Shown: one piece after another, positions 5,005-63,051 of the stretch
How positions within the stretch are numbered: position 1 is the stretch's first letter
How the letters are laid out: each line of letters begins with the position of its first letter
Origin: a virus
Length of the DNA: 64,000 nt
Direction: 5' to 3' (one strand)
IMG/VR virus record: IMGVR_UViG_3300021420_000016
Location: 1-64,000 of that record
Made by a program: the position numbers and the translations under genes
The notes under the pieces: model-generated
What the model was told of the DNA's origin: nothing
The model's input: the letters and a program-made list of their open reading frames with translations, nothing else
The model's database searches: none

Positions 5005-5049
5005 CCGCCTTACCTTCAGCCATTCTAGTGCGATTGCCGGAGGTGCGGC

Positions 5050-5643: not shown

Positions 5644-5675
5644 CCGGCACCTGACCTGACCGGCGGGAGGCGCTG

Positions 5676-7487
5676 GTGGCCGTCTACCTCGCCAACACCT
5701 TCGACGGCGGCACCAACGGCACTACGATCACCCCGGCGATCTCGGGGGGAACCTCCGGGCCGGCGTTCGACGCGGTTGTCTCCAATACTGGCAGCACCGG
5801 CGTCCTCTCCTACGACAGCACGCACGTCCTCGGTGGCCATCCGCTGGCCCTCAAAGCCGCCACAGGGGGAACCTCAACCTCGGTTTACGTGTCCTGGAGT
5901 GCATCGCTCACCGCCTCTGGCCTCCTGCAAGTGTTCTTCCGTCAGTACCTGTACTTCACCGCCAACCCTTCGGGCTCCAACGTCCGGGTGTTCAACGCAC
6001 TCACCACCGGCGCGGCCCAGTGCGGCGGCATCAACATCACCACCGCCGGCGTGGTGTCCTGCGTCATCGCCAGCGGCGGGGCCGCCACCTCCACGGTCAC
6101 CACGATCCCGCTGAACCAGTTCTTCCGCATCGAGGGCTACCTGATCGGCGACCCCTCCGTGGGTCAGCTCCAGGTCAAGCTGTTCACCACAGCGGACGCC
6201 TCCATCCCGGCTGAGACCAAAACCAGCACGGCCACCCAGAACACCACCGGCACGGTGGGCATCTGCCGGTTCGGCATCTGCACCGCCCTGACCGGCGCCG
6301 GCCCGTTCTGGATGGCTTCCCCCGGCGCGTCCGACACCGGGTACCTAGGCCCCGAGGCCCCCGTGTCCGGGATCCCGCGCACGTTTGCCGGGCCGGTGTT
6401 GCTGAACGGGCCGATGCGGGCCGCCGGGCCGCGCCGGATCTATCCCATGGAACCGTCCGGCCAGCGAGTCATCCCCGTCACCCTCCCCGCCGTTGTGACC
6501 ACCACTGGCACGATCGCCGACCAGGCATCCAAGGTGCTCGCCACCTCAGTCACCACGGCCGGCACTGCGCAAGATCGAGTATCCAAGAGCCTCGCCGCTT
6601 CGGTGACAACCACCGGATCGGTGACCAGGCAAGTATCCAGGGCCTTCACCGCCACAGTCACCGCCGCGGCCGCCGCGGCCCGCAGCCCGGCCAAGACTTT
6701 CACCGCCGCCGTCACCGCAACCGGCTCACTGGCACGGCAGGCCGGCAAGACCCTCCCCGCCGCCGTCACCACGACCAGCTCGCTCGGCCAGCAAGCCGTC
6801 AAGACTCTCGCGGCCGCCGTCACTACAACTGCTTCCCTGGCCCGCAACCCCGGCAAGACGTTCTCCGCCGCCATCACCGCGACCGCAGCGCTCGCACGCA
6901 GCCCCGGCAAGACGCTCCCGGCCACCGTGACTACCGCGGCCACCCTCGGCGCCCGCTCACTGGCCAAGACACTCACTGTGACCGTGACCGCCACCGGGTC
7001 ACTCGGCCGCACGCTCACCCGCACCTTCACTGCCACGGTGACCACCACGGCCACGTACGCCAAGGGCTACCACCGCACATTCACGGTCGCCGTGACCACC
7101 GCCGGGGCGATCCGCCGGGGCATCGGCAAGATCCTCTCCGCCGTGGTGAACACGGCCGGGGCAATCATCCACGGAAGCATCCCCGGCCCACGCCAGCCCG
7201 GCGTCCTCACCATCACCCCATACGGCCCGCTGACCGCGGTTCCCGCGATCACCCCCACAGGCGCACAGGCGGCCACAGGTGCTATCACCCCATACGGGCC
7301 GCTGGCCGCGACCGTCACGCTTGAGCCCGCAGTCGCGCAGACGGCCACGGTCACCATCACCCCCACAGGCGCGCAGGCGGCCGCGCTGACCGCCAGCGCG
7401 CCTGGACAACCGCCCGTGACCTGGGAACCCGCCCCGCCACTGGCCGCCCAGCCATCCCAGCCCGTGGTGCTCACCCCATCGGCCTGA
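5676..7487 (+). CDS. Putative head fibre: N-terminal beta-sandwich plus about 13 tandem 18-aa repeats
   Basis: SD GGGAGG; repeat consensus KTxxAxVTxTxxLxRxxG. Confidence 0.7.
   Translation: MAVYLANTFDGGTNGTTITPAISGGTSGPAFDAVVSNTGSTGVLSYDSTHVLGGHPLALKAATGGTSTSVYVSWSASLTASGLLQVFFRQYLYFTANPSGSNVRVFNALTTGAAQCGGINITTAGVVSCVIASGGAATSTVTTIPLNQFFRIEGYLIGDPSVGQLQVKLFTTADASIPAETKTSTATQNTTGTVGICRFGICTALTGAGPFWMASPGASDTGYLGPEAPVSGIPRTFAGPVLLNGPMRAAGPRRIYPMEPSGQRVIPVTLPAVVTTTGTIADQASKVLATSVTTAGTAQDRVSKSLAASVTTTGSVTRQVSRAFTATVTAAAAAARSPAKTFTAAVTATGSLARQAGKTLPAAVTTTSSLGQQAVKTLAAAVTTTASLARNPGKTFSAAITATAALARSPGKTLPATVTTAATLGARSLAKTLTVTVTATGSLGRTLTRTFTATVTTTATYAKGYHRTFTVAVTTAGAIRRGIGKILSAVVNTAGAIIHGSIPGPRQPGVLTITPYGPLTAVPAITPTGAQAATGAITPYGPLAATVTLEPAVAQTATVTITPTGAQAAALTASAPGQPPVTWEPAPPLAAQPSQPVVLTPSA
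6475..7170 (+). repeat. About 13 degenerate 54-nt coding repeats
   Basis: KTFTAAVTATGSLARQAG-type units. Confidence 0.8.
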
Positions 7488-7501
7488 CAAGAGGGGGCCG
7501 C

Positions 7502-8020
7502 ATGCGCGTCACGGTGGAAGACGGCACCGGCAAGCGAGTCGTCATCGACGGGGACGCCCCCGAGGCGGCCAAAAGCGCCTGGGACGGCGCAGGCTTCGCC
7601 GGCGTGCTCATCAAGTCCGCGCCCGAACGCCGTTACACTCTGTGCGTCGCCTACCCCGCCATGAAAGCCGACGTCAAAGTAGCCCAGGACGGCTACCGGG
7701 ACTTCGTCGGCCCCGACGCCCTCGAAGACGCCGCCTGGTCCTATCTCACCAAGGGCGCCGAAGTCGGCCTGTGGCATTCCGACGGCACCGACGGCGCCGG
7801 CACCTGCGTCGAGTCTTACATCTACCGCGGACCCGACTGGTCCATACCCGTCAAAGGCGGCACCCAGGTCGTCAAAGCGGGGGACTGGCTCGTCGGCATC
7901 GTCTGGTCGAAAGACGCCTGGCCGCTCGTCCTGAAGGGCCACATCAACGGTGTGTCCATGCAAGGCGGCGCCGCCCGCCGCCGCCCCACACCCGAATCCC
8001 TCGCCCAGCTCAGGAGGTAG
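7502..8020 (+). CDS. XkdF-like putative prohead serine protease
   Basis: VAYP...DGYRDFV...LEDAAW...VGLWH...VESYIY...GDWLVG...INGVSMQG. Confidence 0.85.
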   Translation: MRVTVEDGTGKRVVIDGDAPEAAKSAWDGAGFAGVLIKSAPERRYTLCVAYPAMKADVKVAQDGYRDFVGPDALEDAAWSYLTKGAEVGLWHSDGTDGAGTCVESYIYRGPDWSIPVKGGTQVVKAGDWLVGIVWSKDAWPLVLKGHINGVSMQGGAARRRPTPESLAQLRR

Positions 8021-8023
8021 ACC

Positions 8024-10597
8024 ATGACCCACCCCCTGTTCGCCGGCGAAGACGAAGACGAGGCCCTCAAAGACACCGACGGCATCACCGAAATCATCCA
8101 GCTCGACCCCAGCCGCATGGACGGCGTGTTCGCACCCGCGAACGGGGCCCCATTCCTGCTCATCAAGTCCATCGCCAACAGCACGGGGGGTGCCGCGATG
8201 ACGGCCGCCGCGACCGAAACCGACATCGAACTGACGGAGGAGGCCGCCGCCGGGCCAGGCACCGAAACCGCCAAGGGGCAGGCACCACCCGCCGAAGGGG
8301 AAGCCGCCAAGGACTCCACCGACGGCGACAACGGCGAAGCGGACGAGGGCGCCGAAGGCGAAACCGACGACGACGGGGGAGCCGAAGCCGACGCTGGCGC
8401 CGCCAAAGCCGCCACCCCGGAGCCGCCGCACGTGACCAAGGCCGCGATCAAGGCCGCCCGCAGCGCTTACGAGACCGCCCGCCGCGAGTACGACGCCGCC
8501 GAGCCCACCACCAAAGGCGCCATGGACGGCACCGACGTCCTCCGCGCCCGCGCCGACTGGAACAAGTGGCGCGAACTCGGCAAATCCGAAGGCCTCGACG
8601 GCACCGAAACCGGCCGCGCCCACTGGGTCGCCAAACACCTCGCCGAGGACGCAACCCCGGAGCTCACCCTGGGCGACGAGGTGATCAAGGCCGAGGAGAG
8701 CGTCTACAAGCGCAAGTTCACCACCGCGCAGCGCCGCAAAGCCGCCAGTGCAGGCCACGCCCTGGACGACGGCAGTTACCCCATCGAAAACGCCGGCGAC
8801 CTCGACAACGCCGCCCACCTCGCCCGCTCCGGCCACGGCAACGTCGCCGGCGCCAAGCGCCTCATCGCCCGCCGCGCCAAAGAACTCGGCGTGTCCAACC
8901 CCCTGTCCGAGGACAAGGAGCCGGTGGGTGCCAGTAAGGCAGCCGAGCCTGAGATGGCCGAAGAAACCACTACCACCACTGCGGCACCCCCGCTGGACCC
9001 GGCCGAGGCGGTGGAGAAGGCCGCCGCGGCGGGACTGATCAGCCGCGAAGTCGCCGACTCCCTCCTGGCCAAGGTCAAGCGCGGCGTCCCCGCCACGACA
9101 CAGCCCGCCGGGGCGCACCGCGAGCCCGACGGCTCCTACGTCGAATCCCTCGAACACGACGCCAGCCTGCCCAGCGACAGCGACGGCAGCTCCGACCACA
9201 TCCCCGCACCCGTCGCCGAAGCCGGCACGATCCCCCCGGCGAACGCGAACACCAGCGTGATGGCCGAGCGCGCGGGCAAATCCGCCCCGTACTCGGTGCA
9301 GCGGATGCACGACGCCCTATGCCCCGCCTACGACGAAGCCGACGTGATCGAGGCCTACCCGGCACTGAAGTCCGTCATGGACGCGGTCGACGGCGTCTGG
9401 TTCGAGGCGCAGGCCGCCTGGAAGCAGGCCGAGGGCAAGGCAAAGAAAGCCGCCAAGCTGACCGCCATCGCCAAAGCCGCCGAGAGCCTCCACGACGCCG
9501 ACCCCGCCGCCCTCGCCGACGCCCGCGCCGGCCTGCGCAAGGCGTTCACCGACGCCTACCCCGACACCAAGATCCGCCCCCAGTCCGGGATCAGCCCGTC
9601 CTCATTCCACCGGTCCTGGATCACCGCAGGCCACGAAGCGAACTCCCCGGCCATCACCGGCACCCAAGCCGCCTCCCCGGCACCCCCCGCGTCCCACGTG
9701 CCCGAGCCGCAGCAGTTCCAGCGCGGCAACCTCACCGCCGGCCACGAAACCCCCTCCCCGGGCGACCACGGGCCCAACAACCCTAACCCGCCCGGATCCT
9801 CCGGCAACGACTACTACTCCACCTCCGAGCAGATGATGGCCGCCGCCGCGATGCGTTCCGTCCACGACCACATCCAGGCCACCTTCGCCGGATGCTGCCC
9901 CATGGCCCCGGCCCGCCACGCCCTCCCCACCGGCCCGGGAATGGGCGCCACCAGCACACCGGAAAAGAAGGTCCCCATGTCCATGGGAGGCATCCCCACC
10001 GTCGGCAAATCCGAAAACGGCACCCTCGATTCACAGGCCCTCGCGGACCTCGCCGCGGCCCTCGTGCAGATCGCCAAGACCGCCACCCCCGACAGTGACA
10101 GCGACGGAGACGGCAAGGCGTTCGGCGGCAACCAGGCACCCCCGTTCGGCAAGAAAAAGAAGGGCAAAGGCAAGGCGAACAAAGCAGAACTGATCGCCGC
10201 CCTCAAAGAAGCCTCCGAAGCCGGCGCCCGCGCCGCCCTCGACGCGATGAAAGCCCACGGAGACGGCGCTGCCGTCCAGGCCGTCGTCGCCGAGCAACTC
10301 CGCGAAATCGGCGCCCGATACGACTCCCAGCTCTCCGACCTCACCAAGCAGGTCGAAGAACTGGGCTCCCAGCCCGACCCGGCGCAGGCCCCCGTGCGAG
10401 GCCAAATGAGCCGGCCGGAGACCGCAGCTCCCGTGGAGAAGCGCTCCCTGATCGACGAGCACCGCGCCGCCAAAGCCGCACAGGCCGAAGCCGAGCGCGA
10501 GGCTTTCACCGACTACGTCCGCATGCAAGCGCAGTCGGCTGACCCCAAGGTCCGTTCCCGCGCCGAGGAGGTGCTTCGCACTATCCCGGCGCCCTAG
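8024..10597 (+). CDS. Large capsid scaffold/maturation-associated protein (857 aa)
   Basis: SD AGGAGG; N-terminal PAN-xx-PFLLIKS motif, internal DGSYPIEN...IARRAKELG domain, acidic and low-complexity linkers, coiled-coil C-terminus; lies between protease and capsid. Confidence 0.7.
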   Translation: MTHPLFAGEDEDEALKDTDGITEIIQLDPSRMDGVFAPANGAPFLLIKSIANSTGGAAMTAAATETDIELTEEAAAGPGTETAKGQAPPAEGEAAKDSTDGDNGEADEGAEGETDDDGGAEADAGAAKAATPEPPHVTKAAIKAARSAYETARREYDAAEPTTKGAMDGTDVLRARADWNKWRELGKSEGLDGTETGRAHWVAKHLAEDATPELTLGDEVIKAEESVYKRKFTTAQRRKAASAGHALDDGSYPIENAGDLDNAAHLARSGHGNVAGAKRLIARRAKELGVSNPLSEDKEPVGASKAAEPEMAEETTTTTAAPPLDPAEAVEKAAAAGLISREVADSLLAKVKRGVPATTQPAGAHREPDGSYVESLEHDASLPSDSDGSSDHIPAPVAEAGTIPPANANTSVMAERAGKSAPYSVQRMHDALCPAYDEADVIEAYPALKSVMDAVDGVWFEAQAAWKQAEGKAKKAAKLTAIAKAAESLHDADPAALADARAGLRKAFTDAYPDTKIRPQSGISPSSFHRSWITAGHEANSPAITGTQAASPAPPASHVPEPQQFQRGNLTAGHETPSPGDHGPNNPNPPGSSGNDYYSTSEQMMAAAAMRSVHDHIQATFAGCCPMAPARHALPTGPGMGATSTPEKKVPMSMGGIPTVGKSENGTLDSQALADLAAALVQIAKTATPDSDSDGDGKAFGGNQAPPFGKKKKGKGKANKAELIAALKEASEAGARAALDAMKAHGDGAAVQAVVAEQLREIGARYDSQLSDLTKQVEELGSQPDPAQAPVRGQMSRPETAAPVEKRSLIDEHRAAKAAQAEAEREAFTDYVRMQAQSADPKVRSRAEEVLRTIPAP

Positions 10598-10612
10598 AAC
10601 CACGAACGCGCC

Positions 10613-10636
10613 GGCCCCCTTTTGTGGGGCCTTTTT
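10613..10636 (+). terminator. Intrinsic terminator-like hairpin just upstream of the capsid gene
   Basis: GGCCCC-7nt-GGGGCC-TTTTT. Confidence 0.6.
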
Positions 10637-10651
10637 CATGCCGTAGGAGGC

Positions 10652-11164
10652 ATGATGTCTGAAAACGAAGTGGCAATCCCTTACGGGAGCGCCGCCACCC
10701 CCGTCCTGGAAAGGACGGGCACCGACACCCGCTGGCACGCCGATGCGGACGTCGAGCGTTACCGCGCCCCGGACCTGATGCTGTCGGACAAAATGCCGAC
10801 GCTGGTCAAGGGCGCAGGATATGCCCGGGTCGGCGGCAATATGCCGCTGTCCGACGACGAGCAGATCTTCCGCCGTTCCATGAAGGCGGAGGACGCTTTC
10901 CGTGCCGCCATTTCCAAGGGCGTCAACGAGCCCCGCGAGGTGCTCAAGGGCCTCAAGCCCGAATTCGCTGGGCAGTTCGCCGCCTTTATGACGGCCGCGC
11001 CACAGAACCAGGGGCTGCGGCAACTGGCCAACCAGTTCGCCTCCGCCCTGAAGGACGTCCCTGGCGTCGACCAGGACGTCCTGAAGTCCATTACCACCAC
11101 GTCGCCGCTTGGGACAGGGTTCGTGCCCTTCGATCTCGTCGCCCCGAGCTCTCTCATCTACCCT
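10652..11164 (+). CDS. Major capsid protein exon 1
   Basis: Ends FDLVAPSSLIYP at ...TACCCT. Confidence 0.85.
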
Positions 11165-14100
11165 GGATGATCATGGGGCACTATGCCGTGAGGCATAGTC
11201 GCAAACCCCCGAGAATTGCTGGGACACCCACACCTACCTGCTTATGCCACAGCGTGAGGCGAAAGCCTGGCCGCGACGGCCTGAGAAATAGGCAGCAGGG
11301 GCAATCAGCAGCCGAGCCGCCCTGGCGCAAGCCGAGCGGAAGGTTCAGAGACTAGGCACGGGGGACCTGCTCGCGCAGGCCAAGGAATAGTCCGATCTGC
11401 ATGGAGACATGCAGAGCCATCCAGAAATGCGATGGCCCGCCGCAGTAAGCGGCGAGTAACAATTTTGGTGTATAGCCCTCTGCGCAACAAGCTCCCCCGA
11501 GTCCCGGGTCAGGGCGCGTCGCGCAGGCGCAAGGTCATCACCGGCGTCTCCGGCTCCCAGACCGGCCCGAGCGGCGGCAAGTTCGTCCGCCTCGGCATCC
11601 CGGAACTGGTCCAGTCCGGCGGCGCGATCGGCGGCACCAGTTCCGCAGTGAACTGGCCGCTCAACCTCCCCGGCACCGGAACCCAGGATGCCGTGGACCT
11701 CACCGTCCCTTGTCTAAACTAGGTAGGGGCCTCGCCCGGTGACGGGCGAGTGAAAACCGCGAGAACTGCTGGAACACCCGTATCACCTGCTCACGCCACA
11801 GCGTGGCCCGAAAGGGCGAGCGCGACGGCTTGAGAAGTGAGCAGCAGGGGCAATCAGCAGCCGAGGGCCTAAGGGCAACGCGCCTACGGTCAAGGTTCAG
11901 AGACTATGTACGCGGGATCTGGCATAATTGAATAATGGGCAACTGGTCAATGCGCGCCTTCGCCCCCGCCGAACAGCTTGACATCACCACCCGGTACGAC
12001 GCGGGGGAGAGCGTCAACGCTCTCCGCATCGAGTACAAGTGCGCGCCGGAAGCCATCCAGGCAACCCTGCGAGCTGCGGGAATCAAGCTGAGAACGCGGG
12101 CCGAATCGCAGCGCACCCCCCAGTTCCGTCAGCAATCGCGGGAGGCGCTGCTGCAGCGGCTCCCATGCATGCGAGGCCCGGCAACGGATACGCCTATCGA
12201 GCGGCGCCTATGCGACGCCCTGATGGCGGCGGGGATCGGATTCACAACCCAGTCCCTGCTGCTGGATCGCTACTTGGTGGATATAGAACTCCATCAGGCC
12301 CCTATCGTTCTTGAGGCCGACGGTGCGCAGCACACCCTGCGAGACCAGAGGATTAAGGACGCCGAACGCGACACCGCGCTGACTGCGGCCGGTTACCGGG
12401 TATTCCGGTTCACCGGCAGCAAGATCAACCACGACGCCGCCGTTTGCGTCAGGGAAGTCGTCGCCGCTTGCGGCCTGACGCCTGACGGCGATCCGGTCTA
12501 CGACATCCGTACACGGTTCGCCGGGCCGCTCCACCCACGCTGGACGCGGGTCAAGTTCACCTGCGAGCAGTGCGGCACGGAGTTCTGGAAGCCGCCGTCA
12601 CACCGCGCGTTTGGCCACGTCTTCTGCAAGCAGAGGTGTTACGGCGACTGGTTGCACGAACATCCTGAAGTCAACACCCACCGGCAGCGCCGCAGCCAGC
12701 GCGACTGGACGGGACTTGCCGAACTGTACGGCGCCGGGATGTCTATCAAGCAGCTAGGCATCCACTTCGGGTGCAGCAACAGGATGATCACGTCAGCAAT
12801 GCGCGACCAGAGCATCCCGGTCCGGCCAATAGGAGGCCGCCGCGTCAAGGGCGGGTTTTATGCGGCCGGGATCGCGCCATCGTAAAAGCCAGATCAAGAT
12901 ATAGTTCCGATCTTACGCGAGAGCGTGAGAGGACGGCGGAAACGACCGTCCCCGCCAGGTCATGCTGGTGAGTAACAACATGTACCGCTTCTGGGGATTG
13001 TCCGAGAACCTGAGCTGGCTCAGCCAGTTCGAGGGTTGGTCTATTTAACTGGCCCCCCTGCGGAGCGATCCGCAGGTGCAAACCGCACCGTAACGGTGAA
13101 CCCCACCGAGCTCGCCGGGGAATACCGTGGAAACCTCGCATCAGGGTTCCGTAGAGAGCAAACGTGTGGCACCTGCCACGGGGGGCTGTCCCGATGTCAA
13201 CGGGGACAGCAAACCGCAGGTGAAGTTGTGCTCCGGCCTGCACCGATGGAAAAGGTGCAGAGTCATCCAGAAATGAGATGACCCCCGCCTAAGGAATGGC
13301 GGGAGTAACAAACCGCAAGGGTTCGAGGACATTTCTGCACTGGCAAATCTTTTGCTGCTGCAGGAGTTCATGTTGAACGAAGAGGCGAGCCATCTGGGCG
13401 CCACTTCCATCGCCCTCTCCGCGCCGGCCGCGCCAACCCTCACCGCGAGGACGGCAAACACCGGAGAAACCGCGCTGACCGGTGTCACCACGAACGTCTT
13501 CGTGGAAGTCACCGCAGCCACCTTCTTCGGGGAAACCGCGGCCGGATCGTCGGCTTCCGTGGCCTGGTCCTCGGGCCAGGTTGTGGACGTGCAGATCGCA
13601 CCCGTCAAGGGCGCGATGTTCTACAAGATCTACACGACCACGGGGGCCTCCGCGGGCACCTACTACCTCAACGCCAACAACGTCGGCGGCCTGTACTACA
13701 CCCTCCAGGGTGCACTGCCCACCACGGGCACGCAGGCCCCGGCTTCCGATACCGGCACCTCCTCGGCCAACGACCAGGAGGGGCTGTTCTCGGTCCTGTC
13801 CGGCAACGCCGCGTCCGGCGGGTCGAACATCTATCCCGCGAACTGGGCTGCCGGTTACTTTACCCAGTCGGTTGGTGACACTCTGAAGACCTCCGTGCTG
13901 AACACGGCCCTTCAGCAGCTGTGGGACGGCACCGGCTCCGGCGTGGGGACCTATGGTTCGTACCGCGCCGACCCTGCGGAGATCATCGCCGAAGGTGGCG
14001 ACGTCGCCCGCCTGTCCAATGACATCGTGCAGCTTGGGGCTGCCACCAACTACCGCCTGTTCGTGGAGCAGTCGGAAGTGCCTGGTGTGCGCCTTGGTGC

Positions 14101-17456: not shown

Positions 17457-19293
17457 TTGAGGATCATATTGCATTCGAATGCACCGTGGCCCTCAACCTT
17501 AGGCTGGTTACGGAATCCAGGCGCGCATCTGGGCGCGCAAGTGGCGCGACATGGGCCACGAGGTCATCTTCAGTGCGTTCTCCGGTCTGGCGGGTTCGCC
17601 GTTGCCGTATGACGGGTTCAAGGTGCTTCCGTCGGTGTTCAACGGTGACCCGTTCGGTGCGGCGATCCTGGGGGAGCATTTCCGCCGGGAGCAGGCCGAT
17701 TTCATCATCACTTTGTGTGACATCTGGGCTTTGGAGCCGTCGCATCTGACGGGGCTGCCAGTGGCGCACTGGATGCCGGTGGACTGTGCGCCGCTGTCGA
17801 TGCGGGATGAGAACTGCCTGAAGGTGTCGGGCGCGGTGCCGATCGCGATGTCCCGGTTCGGGGAGCGGATGCTCCGCGATGCGGGTTTCGAGACGGTTCT
17901 GTACGCGCCGCATGGCATCGATTTGGATGTGTGGTCGCCGTCGCTGGACCGGGATGAGGCGCGGCGGCAGCTCGGCGTGGATGGGCTGTTCACGATCGGG
18001 ATCAATGCGGCGAACAAGGACGCGTTCCGTAAGGGCATGGCCGAGCAGTATGAGGCTTTCGCCAGGTTCCATGCGAAGCACCCGGATAGCGCGCTGCTGG
18101 TGCATTCAGTGCTGGCGGAGAAGGATTCCCTGGATCTGCGGGTGATCGAGCAGCGCCTTGGGCTGACCGGCGCGGTGCGGTATGTGGATCAGTACGCGCT
18201 GCTGACGGGGCAGGTGCCGCAGGAGCACCTGGTGAACTGGTATGCCGCCCTGGACCTGTATTCGGCGTGCTCGTTCGGCGAGGGGTTCTGCCTTCCCGCG
18301 GTGGAGGCGATGGCGTGCGGCGCGCCGGTGGTGGCGACGGACTGTTCCGCTTTGGCGGAGGATGTCGCGGCGGGGCAGTGGCTGGTAAAGGGCGAGCGAT
18401 TCTGGAATCCCACCCATGGCTCATGGTGGGTGAAGCCGGATATCGGCGGGATCGCCAAGGCGTACGAGGCCGCATACCAGAAGGGTCCCGCGTGGCAGGC
18501 GAAGCGGGGGAAGGCGCGGGCGTCAGCGGAACGGTTCGGCGTGGACCGGGTCGCGGAAGAGTACTGGGAGCCGGTGCTGGCCGCGTTGAAGGAGCGGTTC
18601 TGCCCGGCGGTGACCCTGACTGGCGCGGGGGAGCGGCCGGAGGGCGCGCCGGAGGTCTCAGTGTGTTTCGCGTCCCGCGGCCGGCCGGAGTCTCTCGCGG
18701 AGACGGTGGCGCAACTGGTCGCTTTGGCCGCTGAGCCGGACGCGATCGAGGTCCTGATCGCCGCCGACCCGGATGACGAGGCCACCCACACCGCGGCGCT
18801 GCCGCCACAGGCGCGAGTGTGGGTGGCACCGGAACGGTACGGCTACACCGGGCTGCACCGCTACCTGAATGCGCTGGCATCTCGTGCTGCCGGTGAGTGG
18901 ATTTTGTGGTGGAACGATGACATGCGGATGGTCACCCCCGGCTGGGACAAGATCATCCGCTCGAACCGGCCCGCCGTCTTGTGGCCGCATGCCAACCATG
19001 TGCATCACGCCAACATCGCCCCCGCGTGGCCGAAAGCCTGGTCGGACGCGATGGGGCACGTGTCGCCGACGACGCACATGGACACGTATCTGCAAAGGCT
19101 GGGGGAGGCGCTCGGCCGGCACGACCCGGTCGCGGTGGAGATCACCCATGACCGGGCGGATGTCACCGGGAACCACGACGACCAGACCTACGCCGAGGGG
19201 CGCAAGCTGCTTGGGCCTGAAGGCATGGTCGATGAGGTCTTCCCCTACGACCAGGTGGCCAGGGACGCGGCGGTCATCCGGGGGCTGCTGTGA
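17457..19293 (+). CDS. Bifunctional glycosyltransferase (GT4 + GT2-like) with a 7-nt coding gap: join(17457..17498,17506..19293)
   Basis: SD GGAGGTGA + TTG gives MRIILHSNAPWPST; the +1 frame continues GYGIQ...; GT4 motif EGFCLPAVEAMACG; C-terminal ASRGRP...WNDD. Confidence 0.85.
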
Positions 19294-50747: not shown

Positions 50748-51577
50748 GCTTGATCATGTACGACGCTATCGCGGTCGGCAACATCCCCCAGAACGCCACC
50801 GCGGCCGCCGGGTACGTGGACGGGATGTGGCCCACGCTCTTGGAACTCAAGGCGCGACTGCCCCACGCGCACGTCCTGTCGATCGCCGTGTTCGCCGCCG
50901 ACGACGCCGACTGCCTCGACGTCGAGCAGGGCGACGCCACCCCCGCCGAGGCGCCCGGCTGGGTGCTGCGCCAGCAGGACCGCGGCGCCTACCGGCCGGC
51001 GGTGTACACGAGCGTCTCGAACGTCCCCGCGGTCCTCTCCGCCCTGGGGGCCGCGGGGATCCCCCGCAGCGGCGTGCGGATCTGGTCCGCGCACTACACC
51101 GGGATCACGCACATCTGCGGGCCGTCGACCTGCGCCTACCCGGGGCTGACGATCAACTGCGACGCCACCCAGTTCACCGACGTCTCCCACGGCCTGCCGC
51201 TGGACGCATCCCTGGTATCCGGCACGTTCTTCGACGGCCCCCCGAAACCGCCAGCACCCCAAACGTTCATCCCCCAAGGAGACGGCGTGTTCTTCCTCCC
51301 CAACGGCTCCGGCGCGGTCGCCGCCCTGCCCGTTCCCCGGTTCGTCCTGGGCGCCGGCCCGGCGGGCACCCCGGCGATCGTCGCGCCGACGGTGCTGCGG
51401 CTGGCATCCAACAGCCCCGCCCAGCAGGAATACATGGTGGACGACAGCGGTTCGTGGCTGCCGCTGAACATCGACTACACCCGGTCCCCGGAGGAACTGC
51501 AGATCGGCGCCGCCAGCGTGATCAAGATCCGCCGCACCGACGCCGGGACGAACCTGGTCACCGGCGACTTCGCCTAA
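50744..51577 (+). CDS. Endolysin, GH25-like muramidase
   Basis: AGYVDG, LDVEQGDA, PAVYTS, IWSAHY, ATQFTD. Confidence 0.8.
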   Translation: MSLIMYDAIAVGNIPQNATAAAGYVDGMWPTLLELKARLPHAHVLSIAVFAADDADCLDVEQGDATPAEAPGWVLRQQDRGAYRPAVYTSVSNVPAVLSALGAAGIPRSGVRIWSAHYTGITHICGPSTCAYPGLTINCDATQFTDVSHGLPLDASLVSGTFFDGPPKPPAPQTFIPQGDGVFFLPNGSGAVAALPVPRFVLGAGPAGTPAIVAPTVLRLASNSPAQQEYMVDDSGSWLPLNIDYTRSPEELQIGAASVIKIRRTDAGTNLVTGDFA

Positions 51578-51580
51578 GTA

Positions 51581-51775
51581 CTACTGCCCGCGGACAATCG
51601 CAAGGGCTGCCTCCAGGATCTCGGCCACCGCCCCCGGCGGGATGATCACCCCCGAGGTGAACGGCGCCGCGTGGACTAACACGTCCATCCGGCCGGGGCG
51701 GCCGCCGCCGGTGATCTCGATGCGAGCCATGTCGCAGAACCTGTTCTCATCCGCCGCACCGGTCAGCCGTTTCAC
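51581..51775 (-). CDS. Small hypothetical protein
   Basis: 64-aa ORF. Confidence 0.35.
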   Translation of the reverse strand: MKRLTGAADENRFCDMARIEITGGGRPGRMDVLVHAAPFTSGVIIPPGAVAEILEAALAIVRGQ

Positions 51776-51811
51776 CGTGCACGCCCTTCCGCCAAAGGCC
51801 GTCTTTAGGGA

Positions 51812-53260
51812 TCATCTTTCCACGCCGGTGGCCCCGCGGGCCGACTGGCGCAGGCCGACTGTGGACTGAACATCATCTTCAGTCAGGACGAGCCACGCCC
51901 ACTCGGCAGCTACGGTCAGGGAGCATGCCACCGCATGCGCTACGCGATCCTGACGGCGCCACTCGGTCAGCAACCGATCATTCTTGCTGGTATTGCACGC
52001 CTTGCAGGCTGGAACGAGGTTTGATTCGTGTTCCCAGCCACCCCGGGCGAGTGGGCGCACATGATCCACGGTCTCGGCTTCTGCGCCGCAGTAGACACAC
52101 GGGCCCGCGGCCCTCACCGCTATGTAGACCGCCCGCGGGACCGGTCCCGCGATTTCGGCGGCGGCCTTGCGGGCCCGGCGGGCGTTGCCGTTGCGGCGGT
52201 TGATCGCTGAGCGGATCTCGTGAGGTATTGACGCAAGACGGCAGCCCAGGCAGCGACGGTTCCGGCTAGTGAAGATTTGGCCGCAGTCATCGCAAGCTCG
52301 CTCAAATGCAGCGCACCTGAAGCACTTCCGCTCATGACCCGTGAATATTTGTTCGCACCCTTCACAGTTGCGCTCAGTCGATCGGCATGCATCACAGAAG
52401 CGATGGTTTCCCTTAAACCGCCGATCGCAACCCGCACACGTGCGTATATGCGCCATGCACATAAAACATCGGGGCTTGTTCCCCCGGAAATGTTCGCCGC
52501 AGGCGGCGCAGACTCGTTCGGTGAGTTGGCAAGATGGGCAACGCTTCATCCGACCCTTGAACCTCTGACCGCAGTCGATACAACGACGTTCTATAGCACT
52601 ACACGGGCCGCATAGCCGTTCATCTCCCCGGAATTTCTTTCCGCAACCGCCGCAGATGCGGTCAACTTGGACACATCGCTTGCAGCGTGAGTTGCGGCCC
52701 TTGAACTTACGGCCGCACCCTTCACATGCGCGCTCCGTGGCACTACAGGGTCCACAGCGAAGAACTGGCCCCTTAAAGATCCGGCCGCAGTCAGTACAGG
52801 ATCGTTCGATCCGCAGACACCGCTGGCAGTAACGCTTGCGGCCCTTAAACCTCCGGCCACACTCCACACAGTCCCTTTCGGGCCGAGTGCAGCGGGAACA
52901 GCGGGTTTCAGGCCCAATGAATACACGGCTGCAGCCAGTACAGGTGCGCTCCTCCGTTCGGCGGCAAGGCCCACATTCAAACGTGGACCCCTTAAATCTC
53001 TGGCCGCATTTAGTGCAGTCTCGCTCTGGTACACGGCACACGTTGCACCTGCGCGACGTGCCCTGGAATTCATCCCCGCACTCAAGGCAGATCCGTTTGG
53101 TCCGGTGGCGACAGGCTGGGCACTTGCGCCCTTGGTCGCCACGAAAGACCTTGCCGCATGCGACGCACGTACGATCCGTGGCGCGGCAAGTAGGGCATTG
53201 ACGCGTGTGGCCCCTGAACCTACGCTCGCACTTTTCGCAGACTCGCAACCCATCTGCCAT
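51812..53260 (-). CDS. HNH endonuclease with 14 tandem C4 zinc-finger repeats
   Basis: RxCxxCxxxFxGxxxxCxxC x14; CVYC...TVDHVRPLARGG...NLVPACKACNTSK. Confidence 0.92.
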   Translation of the reverse strand: MADGLRVCEKCERRFRGHTRQCPTCRATDRTCVACGKVFRGDQGRKCPACRHRTKRICLECGDEFQGTSRRCNVCRVPERDCTKCGQRFKGSTFECGPCRRTEERTCTGCSRVFIGPETRCSRCTRPERDCVECGRRFKGRKRYCQRCLRIERSCTDCGRIFKGPVLRCGPCSATERACEGCGRKFKGRNSRCKRCVQVDRICGGCGKKFRGDERLCGPCSAIERRCIDCGQRFKGRMKRCPSCQLTERVCAACGEHFRGNKPRCFMCMAHIRTCAGCDRRFKGNHRFCDACRSTERNCEGCEQIFTGHERKCFRCAAFERACDDCGQIFTSRNRRCLGCRLASIPHEIRSAINRRNGNARRARKAAAEIAGPVPRAVYIAVRAAGPCVYCGAEAETVDHVRPLARGGWEHESNLVPACKACNTSKNDRLLTEWRRQDRVAHAVACSLTVAAEWAWLVLTEDDVQSTVGLRQSARGATGVER

Positions 53261-53310
53261 GAACGGATCGTATCAGCGAGTACCGACAGTTTCATGGAGG
53301 TGGGCCGAGC

Positions 53311-53811
53311 ATGGCGCTACCTGGCGGCCTGAACACCATTACGGTGACTGGGACTTATGTCAATGCTCTGGGTGCTGCTCAGCCTGGCACGGTTTCCTTT
53401 ACTCCCAGTTCAACGGTGACCGATGCGACAGGGGCGACAGTTCTTACCGAGACTGCGGTCACCGCCACCCTGAACTCCTCGGGCAACTTCTCTCTTGGGC
53501 CGCTCCCTTGCACCGACTCGGTCGGTCTTGTGCCTCTTGGCTGGTGCTACACCGTGAACGTCGCCGTCGGGGGAGCGCAGCAGGCCATTTCGCCGGTGTA
53601 CCTGCCGCATGCGCTCGGATCCACGGTCGACATGTCCCAGATCACCCCCGGGCCCGCAGCGCCGGCGCCGTCAGGGCTGATCTACCTGCCGAACGCGGTC
53701 AGCCCACCGACCGGTGGCCCGTCAGGTGGCGGCGGATTCCTGTACGCCCTCAACGGTGCCCTGTACTGGCAGGGACCCTCGGGCAGTCCCACCCTGATCG
53801 CGGCAGCCTGA
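53311..53811 (+). CDS. Virion/tail-associated protein
   Basis: TVTGTYV...GTVSFTPS...ATLNSSGNFS motif; SD GGAGG. Confidence 0.7.
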   Translation: MALPGGLNTITVTGTYVNALGAAQPGTVSFTPSSTVTDATGATVLTETAVTATLNSSGNFSLGPLPCTDSVGLVPLGWCYTVNVAVGGAQQAISPVYLPHALGSTVDMSQITPGPAAPAPSGLIYLPNAVSPPTGGPSGGGGFLYALNGALYWQGPSGSPTLIAAA

Positions 53812-53815
53812 CCCG

Positions 53816-54244
53816 TCAAAGACGCTTCACTGCGTAGATGTGCCCGTGACGGTCGGTGGCGACCTGCCACCCTTCGCCGGTAGTCAGGTCGGGGATGACA
53901 ATTAACTCCGCCGGGGCGGTCAGTGGAGGCCCAGGCAAGACAGCGATTCCGGCTGGCCCGGGCTGCAGCAGTGGCGGCGGCGGCTTATATCCGGCCGAGT
54001 ACACCCGCCCGGGCCGACGGCCGGTGAGCAGACGGCGGACCGCCTCGTCCGATGCGCCGAGCGCTCCAGCGATTCTGCTTGCGGCATGGCGCGGATCTTC
54101 CAGGACGTCGGGGTTTTCCTGGATGTAACGAGCCACAGCCGGCCGCAAATTGCCATGGTTCCACCGGCCCCGGCCACCGGCCGGGGCTTCGGCCGGCCCG
54201 CCGGTGTCTTCCTCTGCCGCCGCCTCAGCCGGTTCGCCCATCAT
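53816..54244 (-). CDS. Hypothetical protein (HTH-like segment)
   Basis: IAGALGASDEAVRRLL. Confidence 0.45.
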   Translation of the reverse strand: MMGEPAEAAAEEDTGGPAEAPAGGRGRWNHGNLRPAVARYIQENPDVLEDPRHAASRIAGALGASDEAVRRLLTGRRPGRVYSAGYKPPPPLLQPGPAGIAVLPGPPLTAPAELIVIPDLTTGEGWQVATDRHGHIYAVKRL

Positions 54245-54447
54245 TTCCTCGCGCGCCAGTCCTGATTGCCGCAGCCCAACTCGGCGCACGCGCACCACGC
54301 TCCGCGGCACCGGCGGTGCGGTGGCGGATTGAACGCGCACCGGGTGCAGATGAAGAACCCCGCCGGCACGGGCCCCCGGATCGCGCGCAGCAGTCGCCCC
54401 ATCACACCTGAAGCCTAAACCCGCCCCCCGGTTTTGGAGGTATCACC

Positions 54448-55251
54448 GTGGCCAACCTGCAACGTGTCCCGGGCAAGCGGGGCAGGCTGCCCCGCGACAT
54501 CACCCGGTTCGCGCCGCGCCTGGAGCATTACGTGCACGGCCCGCTGCGGGTGAGCGGCCTGCCACCGGCGAGCGGGGTCATCGACCGGTGCACGAAAGTC
54601 GCCGACTGGCCCATCTACCTCAACGACCAGATCGGCGACTGCACGATCGCCGGCGCCGGGCACATGCTCGGCGCGATGGCCGTCTACGGCGGCCACGAAG
54701 AACCCCTGTTCTCCGACGCCGAGATCACCACCGCCTACTCGGCCGTATCCGGCTATGTGCCCGGCGACTCCAGTACCGACAACGGCGCCGACATGCAGAC
54801 GGTGCTGCAATACCTGGCGAGCGTCGGCCTCACTGACACCACCGGGAAGGTACACAAGGTCGCCGGGTACGCCGCATTCGGCAGCCCCGCCGATGAGGTG
54901 CTCCTCGCCCAGGTGCTCGACGTGTTCGGGTCGGTGTATGTGGGCGTGTCGCTGCCCGAATACGCGGAGCAGGAGTTCGCCGCCGGGCAGCCATGGAACT
55001 GGCAGCCGAACGCGCAGATCGCCGGCGGCCACTGCATCGTCTTGCAGAAGCGTTCCGTCGGCGGCACCGGCGTCCTGGACTACATCACCTGGGGTGCCGT
55101 GCAGAAGGCCACCCGGAGTTTCCAGTACAACTTCGCCGAGGAAGCATGGGCGGTGGTCTCGCAGGACTGGCTCACCGCCAACGGCGATTCGATCGAGGGT
55201 CTGGACCTGGAGCAGTTGATCTCCGACCTGCAGTATGTCCCTGTCGGCTGA
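54448..55251 (+). CDS. Papain-like (C1-type) cysteine peptidase
   Basis: NDQIGDCTIAG, DNG, GGHCIV, ITWG; SD GGAGGT. Confidence 0.75.
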   Translation: MANLQRVPGKRGRLPRDITRFAPRLEHYVHGPLRVSGLPPASGVIDRCTKVADWPIYLNDQIGDCTIAGAGHMLGAMAVYGGHEEPLFSDAEITTAYSAVSGYVPGDSSTDNGADMQTVLQYLASVGLTDTTGKVHKVAGYAAFGSPADEVLLAQVLDVFGSVYVGVSLPEYAEQEFAAGQPWNWQPNAQIAGGHCIVLQKRSVGGTGVLDYITWGAVQKATRSFQYNFAEEAWAVVSQDWLTANGDSIEGLDLEQLISDLQYVPVG

Positions 55252-59910: not shown

Positions 59911-60612
59911 ATGCGGAACGTGACAATCACACCCCGGCTCACCACCGCCCTGGACCACGCCTGGGGCGCCATCCAGCAACACCACCCCGACGTCCCGGCC
60001 GTCGTCATCACCCTGGGCGCCGGCTCCCGGGCCCGCGGCCCGCTCAGGCTGGGGCACTTCGCGGAAAACCGGTGGCGGCGAGGCGAAGAGTCACTTCACG
60101 AGCTGTTCGTCGGGGGAGAGGGGCTCGCCCGAGGCGCCCACGACGTTCTCGGCACCCTGCTCCACGAAGCCGCCCACGGCGCCGCCGCGACCCGGGGCAT
60201 CCAGGACACCAGCAGGCAGGGCCGGTTCCACAACGCCCGGTACAAGGCGCTCGCCATGGAACTGGGCCTTGACGTAGCCAAGACCGGCACGATCGGCTGG
60301 TCCGCCACCACGGTCCCGGCCAGTACTGCGGCCTTGTACCACGCCGAGTTGCGGCACCTTGAAGGGGCACTTGTGGCCTACCGGCATCCCGAGGCTGGAA
60401 ACGGCCGCGGCGACCGGGCCAGCAGCAACAACGGGCTCGCCGCCCGGTGCGCGTGCAACCGCCTGATCCGCGCCTCGGAAACCGTACTCACGGCCGGGCC
60501 GATCACCTGCGGCCTGTGCGACACCAATTTCGAGCCGGCCGCCGCTCACCCGGGCAGCATGCAGAATTCCGCGACCAGCACCTCGGCCGCCGGGCACAAG
60601 CCGGGGGAGTAG
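59911..60612 (+). CDS. SprT-like zinc metalloprotein
   Basis: TLLHEAAH...RFHNARY; C-terminal CAC...CGLC. Confidence 0.75.
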   Translation: MRNVTITPRLTTALDHAWGAIQQHHPDVPAVVITLGAGSRARGPLRLGHFAENRWRRGEESLHELFVGGEGLARGAHDVLGTLLHEAAHGAAATRGIQDTSRQGRFHNARYKALAMELGLDVAKTGTIGWSATTVPASTAALYHAELRHLEGALVAYRHPEAGNGRGDRASSNNGLAARCACNRLIRASETVLTAGPITCGLCDTNFEPAAAHPGSMQNSATSTSAAGHKPGE

Positions 60613-61727: not shown

Positions 61728-62219
61728 CTAATCCAGGCCCAGGGACTGGCGGAGTTCGTCTTCGGTCGCGCCGGTCAGTTCTTTTTCGCGCTCCAGCACA
61801 AGGGCCATGGCCACCCGGATCAGCGTGTTCGCGGTGATGCGTCCGCCACGACCGTGCCGGTTTCTGTTGAGCGTGCGGGCGAGAGCCTCTAGATCAGCGA
61901 GTTGTTCAGGCCGCAGGCGCCCTTCCACGCGTATCAACTCAGGGTGCCGGGCTCGCTTGGCGCCAGCGGCGGGGATTCCGTTGTGACGTGGCTTCTCTCG
62001 CTCGATGGCTTCATTTTCGGCGGCTTTTGCGTCAGCAAGGGTGCCGTACCAAACGACGGTCTTTCGCGCAACCTCAGGCCACCAGGGCTTCTCTGCAGCG
62101 TGCTGATCAAAACGCATCCGGGGGTGATAGGTGCGACCGACGGAGAGCAAGCCGTCGGCGGCATCCCAGAGCCGGTACAACGCCGTGGTGTCGTCGGTGA
62201 ACTCCATCGGCTCCGTCAT
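61728..62219 (-). CDS. GIY-YIG nuclease-like domain fused to an RHH-like plasmid partition-partner domain
   Basis: ALYRLWD...LLSVG...RFDQH...KPWW...[14 protein letters not shown]; RLRPEQL...[11 protein letters not shown]. Confidence 0.7.
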
Positions 62220-62226
62220 GAGGCCC

Positions 62227-62370
62227 CTATCTGCCCTAGCAAGGCTAGCTGTCCTGATGATACTGCTAGGCCTGCCTGTTCTGCTAGAACTATCATGGCT
62301 GGATATACGCCACACTGTCCAATCTATGCTAGATCTATCAGGTCTGCGGGCTTCCGCAGGTCTGATAGAT
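62227..62370. repeat. parS-like array of degenerate 9-bp direct repeats (CTGCTAGNN-type)
   Basis: Phased units CTATCTGCC CTAGCAAGG CTAGCTGTC CTGATGATA CTGCTAGGC CTGCCTGTT CTGCTAGAA CTATCATGG... upstream of parA. Confidence 0.7.
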
Positions 62371-62388
62371 CGTAGTACACTTCCTCGC

Positions 62389-63051
62389 ATGGTCCAAGCA
62401 CGCCTCCGCGAACCGTATGTCGTGGCCGTCGCCTCCCAGAAGGGGGGAGTAGGCAAGACGACACTGGCCCTCGAACTCGCGGCCGCCGTCGCCGCGTCCT
62501 CTGGCCGGGCGCTCCTAGTGGACATTGACCCCCAGCGGTCCGCCGAGGAGATCGTCGCCTCCTCGCGGAACGTGCCGTTCGACTTCGCCGCCGAAGACAA
62601 TCCCGGCGTGCTCAAGCAACTGCGCACCATCCGCGACTACGACACGATCATTGTCGACACCCCGGGCAGTCTGGAACTCGCCGCCATCCTCGACGGCGTC
62701 CTCGCCTCAGCCACGTTCGCGCTCATCCCGATGGTGCCCGAGCGCGCAGCCGTGCAGCCGACCATCCGCACCGCTCGCATGTGCAAGGATCGCGGCGTGC
62801 CTCACCGGGTCGTCATCAACATGGCCGACCCGCTCCGCGGCCAGGGGCCCGTGGACGCGGCATGGCGGCTCCTGGATGAACTGGAGATCCCGCGGATGCG
62901 ATCCAAGGTGCGCCGGTACGTGAGCCACAGCCAAGCGCAGCTCGACGGGCAGATGATTACCGAGTACCACGGGGACCGGTCCTGGCAGGCCGCCCTCAGT
63001 GACATCAGGGGGGTTCAGGCCGAAATGCTCCTGGAACTGGGGAGACGATGA
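62389..63051 (+). CDS. parA: ParA-family partition ATPase (short, type Ib-like)
   Basis: QKGGVGKTT deviant Walker [18 protein letters not shown]. Confidence 0.93.

Follow-up and report, generated by a model that had tools for sequence, protein, structure and literature searches.

The locus examined here raises the question of what a long row of zinc-binding units contributes to a phage nuclease. A large soil-actinobacterial phage encodes an HNH nuclease in which 14 tightly packed zinc-binding units lie on the N-terminal side of the HNH domain. The gene is present as a single copy within a 154-kb virus record, of which a stretch of 64,000 nucleotides was analysed (the window). It is a complete CDS on the minus strand (zinc-ribbon-array HNH endonuclease, P0001; 51812..53260), an intact open reading frame of 482 aa with its stop codon at 51812-51814.

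The natural zinc ribbon (ZR)-HNH nicking endonucleases that phages and prophages encode, such as N.phiGamma, N.BceSVIII and Bth193 (Xu & Gupta 2013, NAR 41:378, PMC3592412), offer the obvious point of comparison. The characterised enzymes are site- and strand-specific nickases with sites of 3-7 bp; their accessory zinc sites number 1-2, or 4 in the Bth193 fusion, and the proteins measure from 95 to ~300 aa (PMC3592412). The phage protein resembles them in its N-terminal C4 ribbons, in a C-terminal HNH domain with a [CxxC]2 site of its own and in its phage or mobile-element origin. However, it is longer, at 482 aa, and its 14 accessory sites follow one another in tandem at a strictly regular spacing of 24 aa, whereas the ribbons of the known enzymes are irregularly spaced and their genes usually lie beside the terminase or cos site, not among lysis and tail-fibre genes as here. 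Judged by its sequence, the phage protein is an expanded-array variant of the ZR-HNH enzymes, and its family was previously unstudied; we found no description in the literature of a ribbon multiplied into a regular rod with as many as 14 distinct units.

Architecture of the protein

The array occupies aa 6-344 (52229..53245, minus strand), as delimited by a regular-expression count and alignment. Its units begin at aa 6, 30, 56, 80, 105, 129, 153, 177, 201, 225, 249, 273, 297 and 321, are 24-26 aa long and follow the consensus R-x-C-x2-C-G-x2-F-x-G-x4-C-x2-C-x3-E. The preliminary description had counted 14 tandem C4 repeats, and this number is confirmed: 20,000 shuffled versions of the protein gave a mean of 0.2 units and a maximum of 3. 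Each of the 14 variable segments that it quoted is found exactly in the protein. The array contains 56 Cys, with a net charge of +45 and a pI of 9.4. Pairs of units match the Pfam double zinc ribbon family (DZR, PF12773; 31.0 bits against a gathering score of 27.3 at aa 251-292); that family, however, comprises two ribbons and has no assigned function there, whereas in the phage protein 14 units are joined to a nuclease. The divergence of the repeats at the DNA level, also claimed earlier, is borne out by identities among units that average 49% and reach at most 65%. TRF did not detect the array as a tandem repeat in the gene, and a nucleotide repeat search yielded only families of 60-80% identity at multiples of 72 nt.

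An AlphaFold (AF2) model was built from the alignment, its array part covering units 9-14; the pLDDT is 93.3 overall, ~97 through the array and above 90 in the HNH core. Each modelled unit folds into a beta-hairpin that carries the first CxxC in its turn; after the hairpin, the second CxxC lies at a short helical turn of 4 residues. All four ligands of every unit are Cys, and the modelled units are without a recognition helix. For these reasons a C2H2 zinc-finger array was rejected, and the units are C4 zinc ribbon/knuckle modules. The likeness to ZFN and TALE architectures that had been proposed therefore survives in its architectural part only. Like the engineered ZFNs and nickases (C2H2 fingers joined to either FokI or the HNH domain of N.phiGamma) and the TALE nucleases, the phage protein couples distinct tandem units, variable in number, to a nuclease; but its units are 24-aa C4 modules without a recognition helix. 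The near-identity of TALE repeats is likewise absent, since the units differ from one another (17% identity at non-scaffold positions). No meaningful counterpart of the array was found among solved structures (best Z 2.9), and a single-unit profile gave nothing significant against PDB sequences, the best E value of 0.16 going to a C2H2-like CxxCGxxF knuckle only. As a side observation, ESM Atlas rows, all at a TM below 0.5, hint at putative fusions of the array to XerD-like recombinases, Mom and Amidoligase_2.

The array is followed by a basic linker (aa 345-384; 52109..52228, minus strand), in which the Arg-rich helix noted earlier is indeed present in the AF2 model as a long helix at aa 347-370, with a short helix after it. 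The linker motif N-A-R-R-A-R-K...G-P-V-P is conserved family-wide, and the linker occurs also in relatives without arrays. Next comes the HNH (beta-beta-alpha-Me) catalytic core (aa 385-437; 51950..52108, minus strand), delimited by Pfam, alignment and fold matches, and then a C-terminal helical tail (aa 438-482; 51815..51949, minus strand) with the family-conserved motif R-V-x-H...S-x-x-V-A-x-E. The description of the HNH domain as intact holds. Pfam HNH (PF01844) matches aa 388-429 with an E value of 1.7e-9 and 38.1 bits against a cut-off of 21.4, HNH_5 also matches, and so do several PHROG HNH families (best E 4e-16). The zinc site (C388, C391, C419, C422) and the catalytic residues (D399, H400, N414, N423) are invariant across the alignment of 61 sequences. 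Profile matches, catalytic and zinc residues, and fold all place the protein in the HNH endonuclease superfamily.

Matches to solved structures are limited to this HNH part and comprise Cas9-type HNH domains, the Gme HNH nickase and McrA. VIA Z scores for the HNH part are 7.5 to AceCas9 8d2k (rmsd 3.0 over 87 residues), 6.8 to GeoCas9 7mpz and 6.2 to EcoKMcrA 6ghc; the Foldseek probability to the Gme HNH nickase 4h9d is 1.00. Sequence comparisons, with the preceding helix included, give E values of 4e-8 to 4h9d and 0.002 to AceCas9. Gmet_0936 (4h9d), the type II-C Cas9 proteins (8d2k, 7mpz and 4oge of Actinomyces naeslundii), IscB and EcoKMcrA 6ghc have the same beta-beta-alpha-Me fold, and the phage HNH domain matches them in its Cys4 zinc site and in the D-H...N...N arrangement of its catalytic residues. 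Their targeting, in contrast, relies on a guide RNA, on a modified-base reader domain or on nothing, and none has a zinc-ribbon array. Some homologues are named McrA-like type IV restriction enzymes in their source, an assignment that we rejected because the N-terminal region is a zinc-ribbon array instead; EcoKMcrA aligns to the HNH part only (model residues 145-253). From sequence and model together, the C-terminal cassette is predicted to cut DNA in a metal-dependent manner, as an HNH nuclease of the Cas9/McrA-like type.

A sporadic family of solitary genes

The comparison of repeat number among homologues that had been proposed could be made: the ~70 homologues, mostly metagenomic, carry 2-10 units (median 6) on the same linker and HNH cassette, and the 14 units of the phage protein are the maximum found in the family. 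Streptomyces homologues include 6-unit versions, and the carriers are 3 of the 301 Streptomyces species sampled (about 1%); no member of the family turned up in ~400 other genomes drawn from across the phylum, and a single-protein scan of genome contigs returned two Streptomyces loci. The contexts of the homologues are unrelated: a TrwC plasmid or ICE, a DnaB/DUF3987 and serine-recombinase island, a DUF3631 element, a phage-like contig and plain chromosome. One Streptomyces homologue resides in a 5.3-kb tyrosine-recombinase element that splits a ComM-like gene. There is also a collinear 14-unit orthologue in unrelated flanks. The closest orthologue is readable only across several frameshifts, which may reflect assembly error or decay. 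The family is sporadic; its gene stands alone and passes between mobile elements of unrelated kinds, in keeping with the earlier label of a free-standing gene.

No upstream or downstream partner gene is conserved among six loci, which disfavours a restriction-modification or toxin-immunity pair. The tblastx matches were filtered by HSP score, the raw output being dominated by high-GC sum-statistics noise. With low-complexity filtering, a tblastn search of 50,697 phage records with the array alone yielded no match; a word-indexed search with the array alone gave 4 matches and the "longer" search none, both weak evidence. Megablast with 16 kb around the gene found nothing in the phage records. 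An allele of this locus lacking the HNH gene had been envisaged, but no HNH-less syntenic relative was found in the viral contigs or the phage collection when these were queried with the proteins of the neighbours. The empty-site search returned one non-syntenic contig, whose common part is a lysin-like N-terminal domain only, and a second query came back empty. Homing is therefore without comparative support.

Unit variation and the ligand of the array

The explanation that we favour, with moderate confidence, is that of a free-standing mobile ZR-HNH endonuclease whose array lies along DNA and positions the nuclease, in a selfish homing-type or anti-competitor role. The rod of 14 distinct and strongly basic C4 units would most likely follow the DNA, and its contacts would yield a target longer or more selective than the 3-7 bp of the known ZR-HNH enzymes. 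The role would most likely be that of a selfish homing-type nuclease, or of a weapon against competing phages or elements, rather than that of a packaging factor. We infer DNA, and not RNA or protein, as the ligand of the array, and the same applies to sequence specificity, target length and biological role. The idea of a long site is tempered both by the short sites of the known enzymes and by the behaviour of N.phiGamma, whose specificity is relaxed, not abolished, without its zinc ribbon, the minimal HNH domain keeping much of it (PMC3592412).

How the units vary bears directly on this question. The four-residue loops before the second CxxC had been called hypervariable, a claim that fails: across 533 units their entropy (3.1-3.75 bits) is no higher than that of the other non-scaffold positions (3.4-3.9 bits), and they change less in close orthologues. 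Pooled over 12 independent pairs of such orthologues, loops differ at 48% and other variable positions at 56% (p=0.011). The pN values of a Streptomyces orthologue pair, in which synonymous sites are saturated, are 0.175 for loops, 0.149 for the catalytic cassette and 0.42 for other variable positions. Units keep their positional identity between the phage protein and its collinear 14-unit orthologue. Between lineages, however, the variable residues are fully re-diversified (15.3% identity in register versus 14.2% out of register), although the HNH cassette remains alignable. The loop pattern fits unit-specific functional residues, as far as can be read from sequence, but a repeat-to-base code is not proven by it; weak constraint alone could account for the speed at which most non-scaffold positions evolve. 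The loop-conservation signal itself is modest.

An extreme form of the favoured explanation, which we think doubtful, would make the 24-residue C4 units a modular nucleic-acid reader: each unit would read a few bp, chiefly through the four-residue segment before the second CxxC, the length of the array (2-14 units) would set that of the target, and retargeting would occur by re-diversification. Were it true, nature would have a third repeat-per-site DNA reader beside C2H2 fingers and TALEs, in this case fused to a nuclease; such a reader would explain the target choice of mobile-element nucleases and, at 24 aa per unit, would offer a compact, nuclease-coupled targeting scaffold. Even if the array is not a modular reader, it shows clearly how a domain array has expanded in a phage nuclease. 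The orthologue pairs, the 6-unit Streptomyces versions and the 14-unit phage version together make a tractable system.

The best-surviving alternative, though one that we consider rather unlikely, is a low-specificity nuclease that degrades host or competitor DNA. The array would then act as a polyvalent basic clamp on the backbone, raising affinity or processivity, with short specificity residing in the HNH core; unit number would drift, because total avidity alone would matter. The high net charge of the array and the bias of loop positions 15-16 towards Arg/Lys fit such non-specific phosphate contacts, and the specificity kept by the minimal N.phiGamma domain, the free variation of unit number from 2 to 14, and the fast evolution of most non-scaffold positions with loss of positional identity between lineages point the same way. 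Nonetheless, no two units are alike, each resembles the unit at its own position in orthologues, and among close orthologues the loop residues change about as slowly as the catalytic cassette. Moreover, a non-specific phage nuclease without a partnered inhibitor gene would endanger the phage's own genome.

Tandem RanBP2-type ribbons bind single-stranded nucleic acid or RNA, and the Cys spacing of the array, C-x2-C-x10-C-x2-C, is that of RanBP2-type fingers. The array might thus bind single-stranded nucleic acid or RNA, or it might serve as a LIM-like rod for protein interaction, bringing the nuclease to a host or phage complex; either would suit units devoid of a recognition helix, and there are Foldseek rows to tandem LIM domains. 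Those rows are weak, however, with a probability below 0.25, and neither they nor the C2H2 rows rise above noise. Neither Pfam zf-RanBP nor LIM matches at E<=1, and a RanBP2-type finger was rejected on the former ground and because Arg, not Trp, precedes the first Cys pair. Fusion to a DNA nuclease and the strong basicity of the array favour DNA, and we regard these non-duplex ligands as distinctly improbable.

The locus in the phage genome

The gene was correctly described as antisense, being a solitary minus-strand gene flanked by plus-strand genes; those adjoining it are lysin-like, tail-fibre-like and holin-like, and the lysin-like gene ends at 51577. No terminase was identified in the phage with Pfam PF03354 and PF03237 or in Pfam and PHROG scans of the large early open reading frames. 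Close to the phage protein stand also the gene-1 HNH endonucleases of actinophages (Gordonia phages NovumRegina and IDyn). HNH cores of actinophage examples are 45-57% identical to that of the phage protein, and NovumRegina gp1 has the ribbon form CxxC-x3-F...CxxC in common with its array. Among cultured phages, the HNH domain is matched best by terminase-adjacent ZR-HNH genes (NovumRegina gp1, with 2 ribbons followed by the small terminase subunit gene, IDyn gp1, with 3, and matches also to Lomovskayavirus genes 30-32), and the present gene is the sole Pfam-HNH gene of its phage; but a packaging-associated enzyme, aiding the terminase in cutting genome ends while its array recognises the cos region, is very unlikely for a gene that lies antisense amid genes for lysis and tail fibres, at a distance of ~40 kb from the capsid-like gene, and whose homologues have no terminase neighbour at the loci examined and lie in several cases in plasmids, islands or plain chromosome.

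A divergent intergenic region of 50 bp (53261..53310) separates the gene from the plus-strand tail-fibre-like gene 53311-53811. The leaderless promoter of its own that had been ascribed to the gene is upheld in part. The extended -10-like motif TGATACGAT (53267..53275, minus strand), a candidate leaderless promoter, is situated 6 nt upstream of the ATG, and no Shine-Dalgarno sequence was found upstream of that codon; a generic sigma-70 scan, on the other hand, found no promoter at the gene. Matches to the extended -10 motif number 2 in the window against 0.67 expected. A leaderless start from this motif is plausible on these grounds. No Rfam family was found in 51000-54500. The GC content was rightly seen to fall below that of the flanks, at 0.56-0.62 across 52200-53400 compared with 0.65-0.72, and no repeats were found bracketing this low-GC segment. 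GC3 is 0.65 in the gene and 0.62 in its array part, whereas the open reading frames of the phage average 0.76 +/- 0.09; the codon usage of the gene is atypical for the phage.

The nuclease gene and its predicted fold

The phage nuclease is encoded by an uninterrupted ORF of 482 amino acids (window 51812..53260, minus strand), in which a regular-expression parse finds 14 C4 units arranged head-to-tail, starting at residues 6, 30, 56, 80, 105, 129, 153, 177, 201, 225, 249, 273, 297 and 321. The units have the consensus R-x-C-x2-C-G-x2-F-x-G-x4-C-x2-C-x3-E and 12 of the 14 are 24 residues long (unit 2 has 26 and unit 4 has 25); shuffled versions of the protein never contained more than three such motifs. 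The array has 56 cysteines, a pI of 9.4 and a net charge of +45. The parse and alignment recovered both the 14 repeats and the loop strings listed in a preliminary description, and the HNH domain that it reported matches Pfam over the curated cut-off at residues 388-429. HNH_5 is also matched, as is DZR (double zinc ribbon), over its cut-off, and many PHROG “HNH endonuclease” families match the protein, three of them extending into the repeat region.

The repeats had been described as diverged at the DNA level and the gene as lower in GC than its flanks, and both observations stand. TRF detected no tandem array in the unit region, the mean DNA identity between units is 49%, and a repeat search over the array returned only 60-80% families spaced at multiples of 72 nt; judged at this level, the units are old. 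The GC content falls to 0.56-0.62 across the gene, and since GC3 is low too (0.65 in the gene and 0.62 in the array, versus 0.76 ± 0.09 in the phage's long ORFs), amino-acid composition is not the sole cause.

The extended -10 motif claimed for the gene, TGATACGAT, is present and ends 6 nt before the ATG, which no Shine-Dalgarno sequence precedes. Patterns of this type are rare in the window (2 matches vs 0.67 expected) and a generic sigma-70 scan found nothing; the motif fits an actinobacterial leaderless start, as a candidate only. The neighbouring genes, all on the plus strand, are lysin-like, tail-fibre-like (N-terminus), holin-like and a PHROG of unknown function. In the interval 53261-53330 a GGAGG ribosome-binding site serves the plus-strand gene at 53311, yet that gene has just 50 bp of intergenic DNA upstream, so its transcription probably starts inside or beyond the antisense HNH gene, and late plus-strand transcripts may run antisense over the nuclease gene.

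A structure model of residues 201-482 (units 9-14 onward), built on a 61-sequence alignment, has a mean pLDDT of 93.3, with values of ~97 all through units 9-14. In each modelled unit the first CxxC sits in the turn of a beta-hairpin, and the second at a helical turn of four residues that comes next. Because the hairpin's first strand comes from the end of the preceding unit, the units are predicted to interlock and not to be strung like separate beads. Beyond the array a long basic helix (residues 347-370) leads to the HNH core, after which the chain ends in a helical tail. Structure matches by Foldseek and an exhaustive VIA-align search are confined to the HNH region, and include actinobacterial Cas9 HNH (Z up to 7.5), IscB, EcoKMcrA (Z 6.2), GVE2 HNH and the Gme HNH nickase 4h9d; in BFVD, HNH endonucleases of cultured actinophages matched over 200-326 columns. 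Against solved structures the array gave only noise-level rows (tandem LIM domains at probability <0.25, a C2H2 array at Z 2.9), and the 14-unit profile had no significant match among PDB sequences, the best (E 0.16) falling on the CxxCGxxF knuckle of C2H2 fingers.

Relatives of the array and of the cassette

The protein belongs with the zinc-ribbon HNH endonucleases, as a variant. The natural nickases of this type have 1 or 2 accessory zinc sites (4 in a fusion) in 95 to about 300 amino acids, are usually encoded beside cos and terminase genes and cut one strand at 3-7-bp sites; without its ribbon, N.phiGamma has a weaker and relaxed, but not abolished, specificity (Xu and Gupta, PMC3592412). 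Two of the actinophage proteins matched in BFVD were inspected: there are two ribbons in NovumRegina gp1 and three, irregular and widely spaced, in IDyn gp1; each is gene 1 at a genome end, that of NovumRegina adjoining the small terminase subunit. A full-text literature search found no description of tandem or arrayed zinc ribbons, and a regular array of such length is unprecedented.

A word-indexed search yielded 82 related proteins, and HMMER, run exhaustively over 1.84 billion cluster representatives, gave 406 clusters at E<=1e-10, of which 64 reached E<=1e-30, mostly metagenomic and with absent or generic names (“HNH endonuclease”, “McrA”). Among the retrieved proteins bearing the cassette of basic linker and HNH, 67 have at least 2 units (median 6, second-largest 10), and the 14 of the phage protein are the maximum. 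Sub-families have CxC (P0025, P0030, P0044) or Cx4C (P0021, P0050) as first knuckle in all their units and retain G-x2-F/Y-x-G and the second CxxC, which shows that the unit tolerates a changed knuckle length. Elsewhere the cassette is preceded by multi-pass membrane domains, irregular Cys-rich regions or coiled coil: P0167, P0187 and P0199 (495-540 aa) carry linker, HNH and tail behind a multi-pass transmembrane region and have no zinc-ribbon array, and P0062 joins 4 units to a C-terminal DUF2637-type membrane region. The nuclease is thus a cassette for which the regular array is one among several N-terminal options. Six-unit versions occur in the named genomes of Streptomyces amritsarensis and Streptomyces sp. 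AM6-12; of 301 genomes of Streptomyces species, 3 contain the family, and none does among ~400 further genomes drawn from across the phylum.

Divergence of the unit residues

The loops (positions 13-16) had been called hypervariable. In a set of 533 canonical units (117 proteins) their entropy, 3.1-3.75 bits, is no different from the 3.4-3.9 bits at the other non-scaffold positions, so that the term is unjustified; Arg/Lys is enriched at positions 15-16. In a Streptomyces orthologue pair (L013/L014) with saturated synonymous sites, 6% of scaffold residues differ, as do 25% in the loops (pN 0.175) and 57% at other variable unit positions (pN 0.42), with pN 0.149 for the linker and HNH cassette. 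When 12 pairs independent in phylogeny are pooled, 48% of loop residues differ vs 56% of those at other variable positions (p=0.011, one-sided), and this lower loop divergence is limited to close pairs. The closest orthologue of the phage protein (L002, ENA contig_80220, 440-1950) has 14 collinear units and differs from it at 52% of loop and 68% of other variable positions (p=0.054); units pair by position, identity reaches 66-70% in units 2, 3, 6 and 12, with an unchanged DQGRK loop. This orthologue is legible only across at least 3 frame switches, through either long-read indel error or decay of the copy.

Non-scaffold identity among the phage protein's own units is only 17%, with no duplication periodicity. 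Over 2,016 family pairs it is equal in register (15.3%) and out of register (14.2%), so the variable residues have been wholly replaced between lineages; the nuclease cassette remains 50-70% identical. When loop residues are compared among homologues they prove unit-specific and conserved in close orthologues, not hypervariable, and are better described as under purifying selection within lineages. Residues distinct per unit, held within a lineage and rewritten between lineages form the pattern expected of specificity residues; it would also suit moderately constrained basic contacts amid weakly constrained filler.

Mobility and the role of the array

Homologues lie in heterogeneous contexts. 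P0020 has ordinary chromosomal surroundings, P0011 is in a plasmid/ICE-like region with a TrwC relaxase, P0009 shares an island with a serine recombinase and a DnaB/DUF3987 gene, P0002 belongs to a DUF3631 element and P0058 is on a phage-like contig. In Streptomyces sp. AM6-12 a 5.3-kb insert (5965-11255 of NZ_JBIQWN010000001.1) contains the 6-unit gene together with two tyrosine recombinases and a DUF6262 gene. It interrupts a ComM/Mg-chelatase-like gene (N-terminal part 11256-12281, C-terminal part 5185-5964) whose halves abut in the profile (positions 1-113 and 107-206); the insert is thus a small integrative element that carries the nuclease as its cargo. In filtered tblastx the phage and homologue contigs have the nuclease gene alone in common, never its flanks, and no neighbour gene is conserved among the loci compared. 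The gene thus behaves like a solitary mobile nuclease gene; neither a packaging factor nor one partner of a restriction-modification or toxin-immunity pair would be expected to behave in this way.

The preliminary observation is confirmed and its interpretation partly supported: the gene is real, mobile and free-standing and encodes an HNH nuclease with intact catalytic residues and a regular zinc-ribbon array of exceptional length, whereas the loops are not hypervariable. That the array reads DNA, at a long site or by any code, we infer; we give roughly even weight to its being a DNA-binding module by which a selfish or competitive nuclease selects its target. A non-specific clamp seems distinctly less probable. 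Least likely are a non-DNA ligand of the array or a packaging role, the latter being at odds with the solitary, mobile behaviour of the gene.

The virus record is 154,048 bp long (estimated 98% complete; the window is its first 64 kb), and in it the nuclease gene is single-copy and the sole Pfam-HNH gene. Pfam and PHROG scans, large early ORFs included, recognised no terminase; a capsid-like gene lies near 13.3 kb. Directly upstream of it lies a second free-standing nuclease, a protein of 316 aa (11935-12885, plus strand) that has a DUF559/Vsr-like endonuclease domain (E 2e-13) and matches HTH models weakly. The window's third nuclease-like gene is a 300-aa ORF (61728-62630, minus strand) that matches the PHROG endonuclease families phrog_3312 and phrog_16880 (E 1e-18). 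A 580-aa glycosyltransferase (17551-19293, plus strand; phrog_2170, E 7e-34) has a second glycosyltransferase-like region at its C-terminus. The SprT-like gene region at 59986-60534 has ~58% protein identity to a gene (5029-5568) on the plasmid/ICE-like TrwC-relaxase contig (L006), which bears a zinc-ribbon HNH homologue too.
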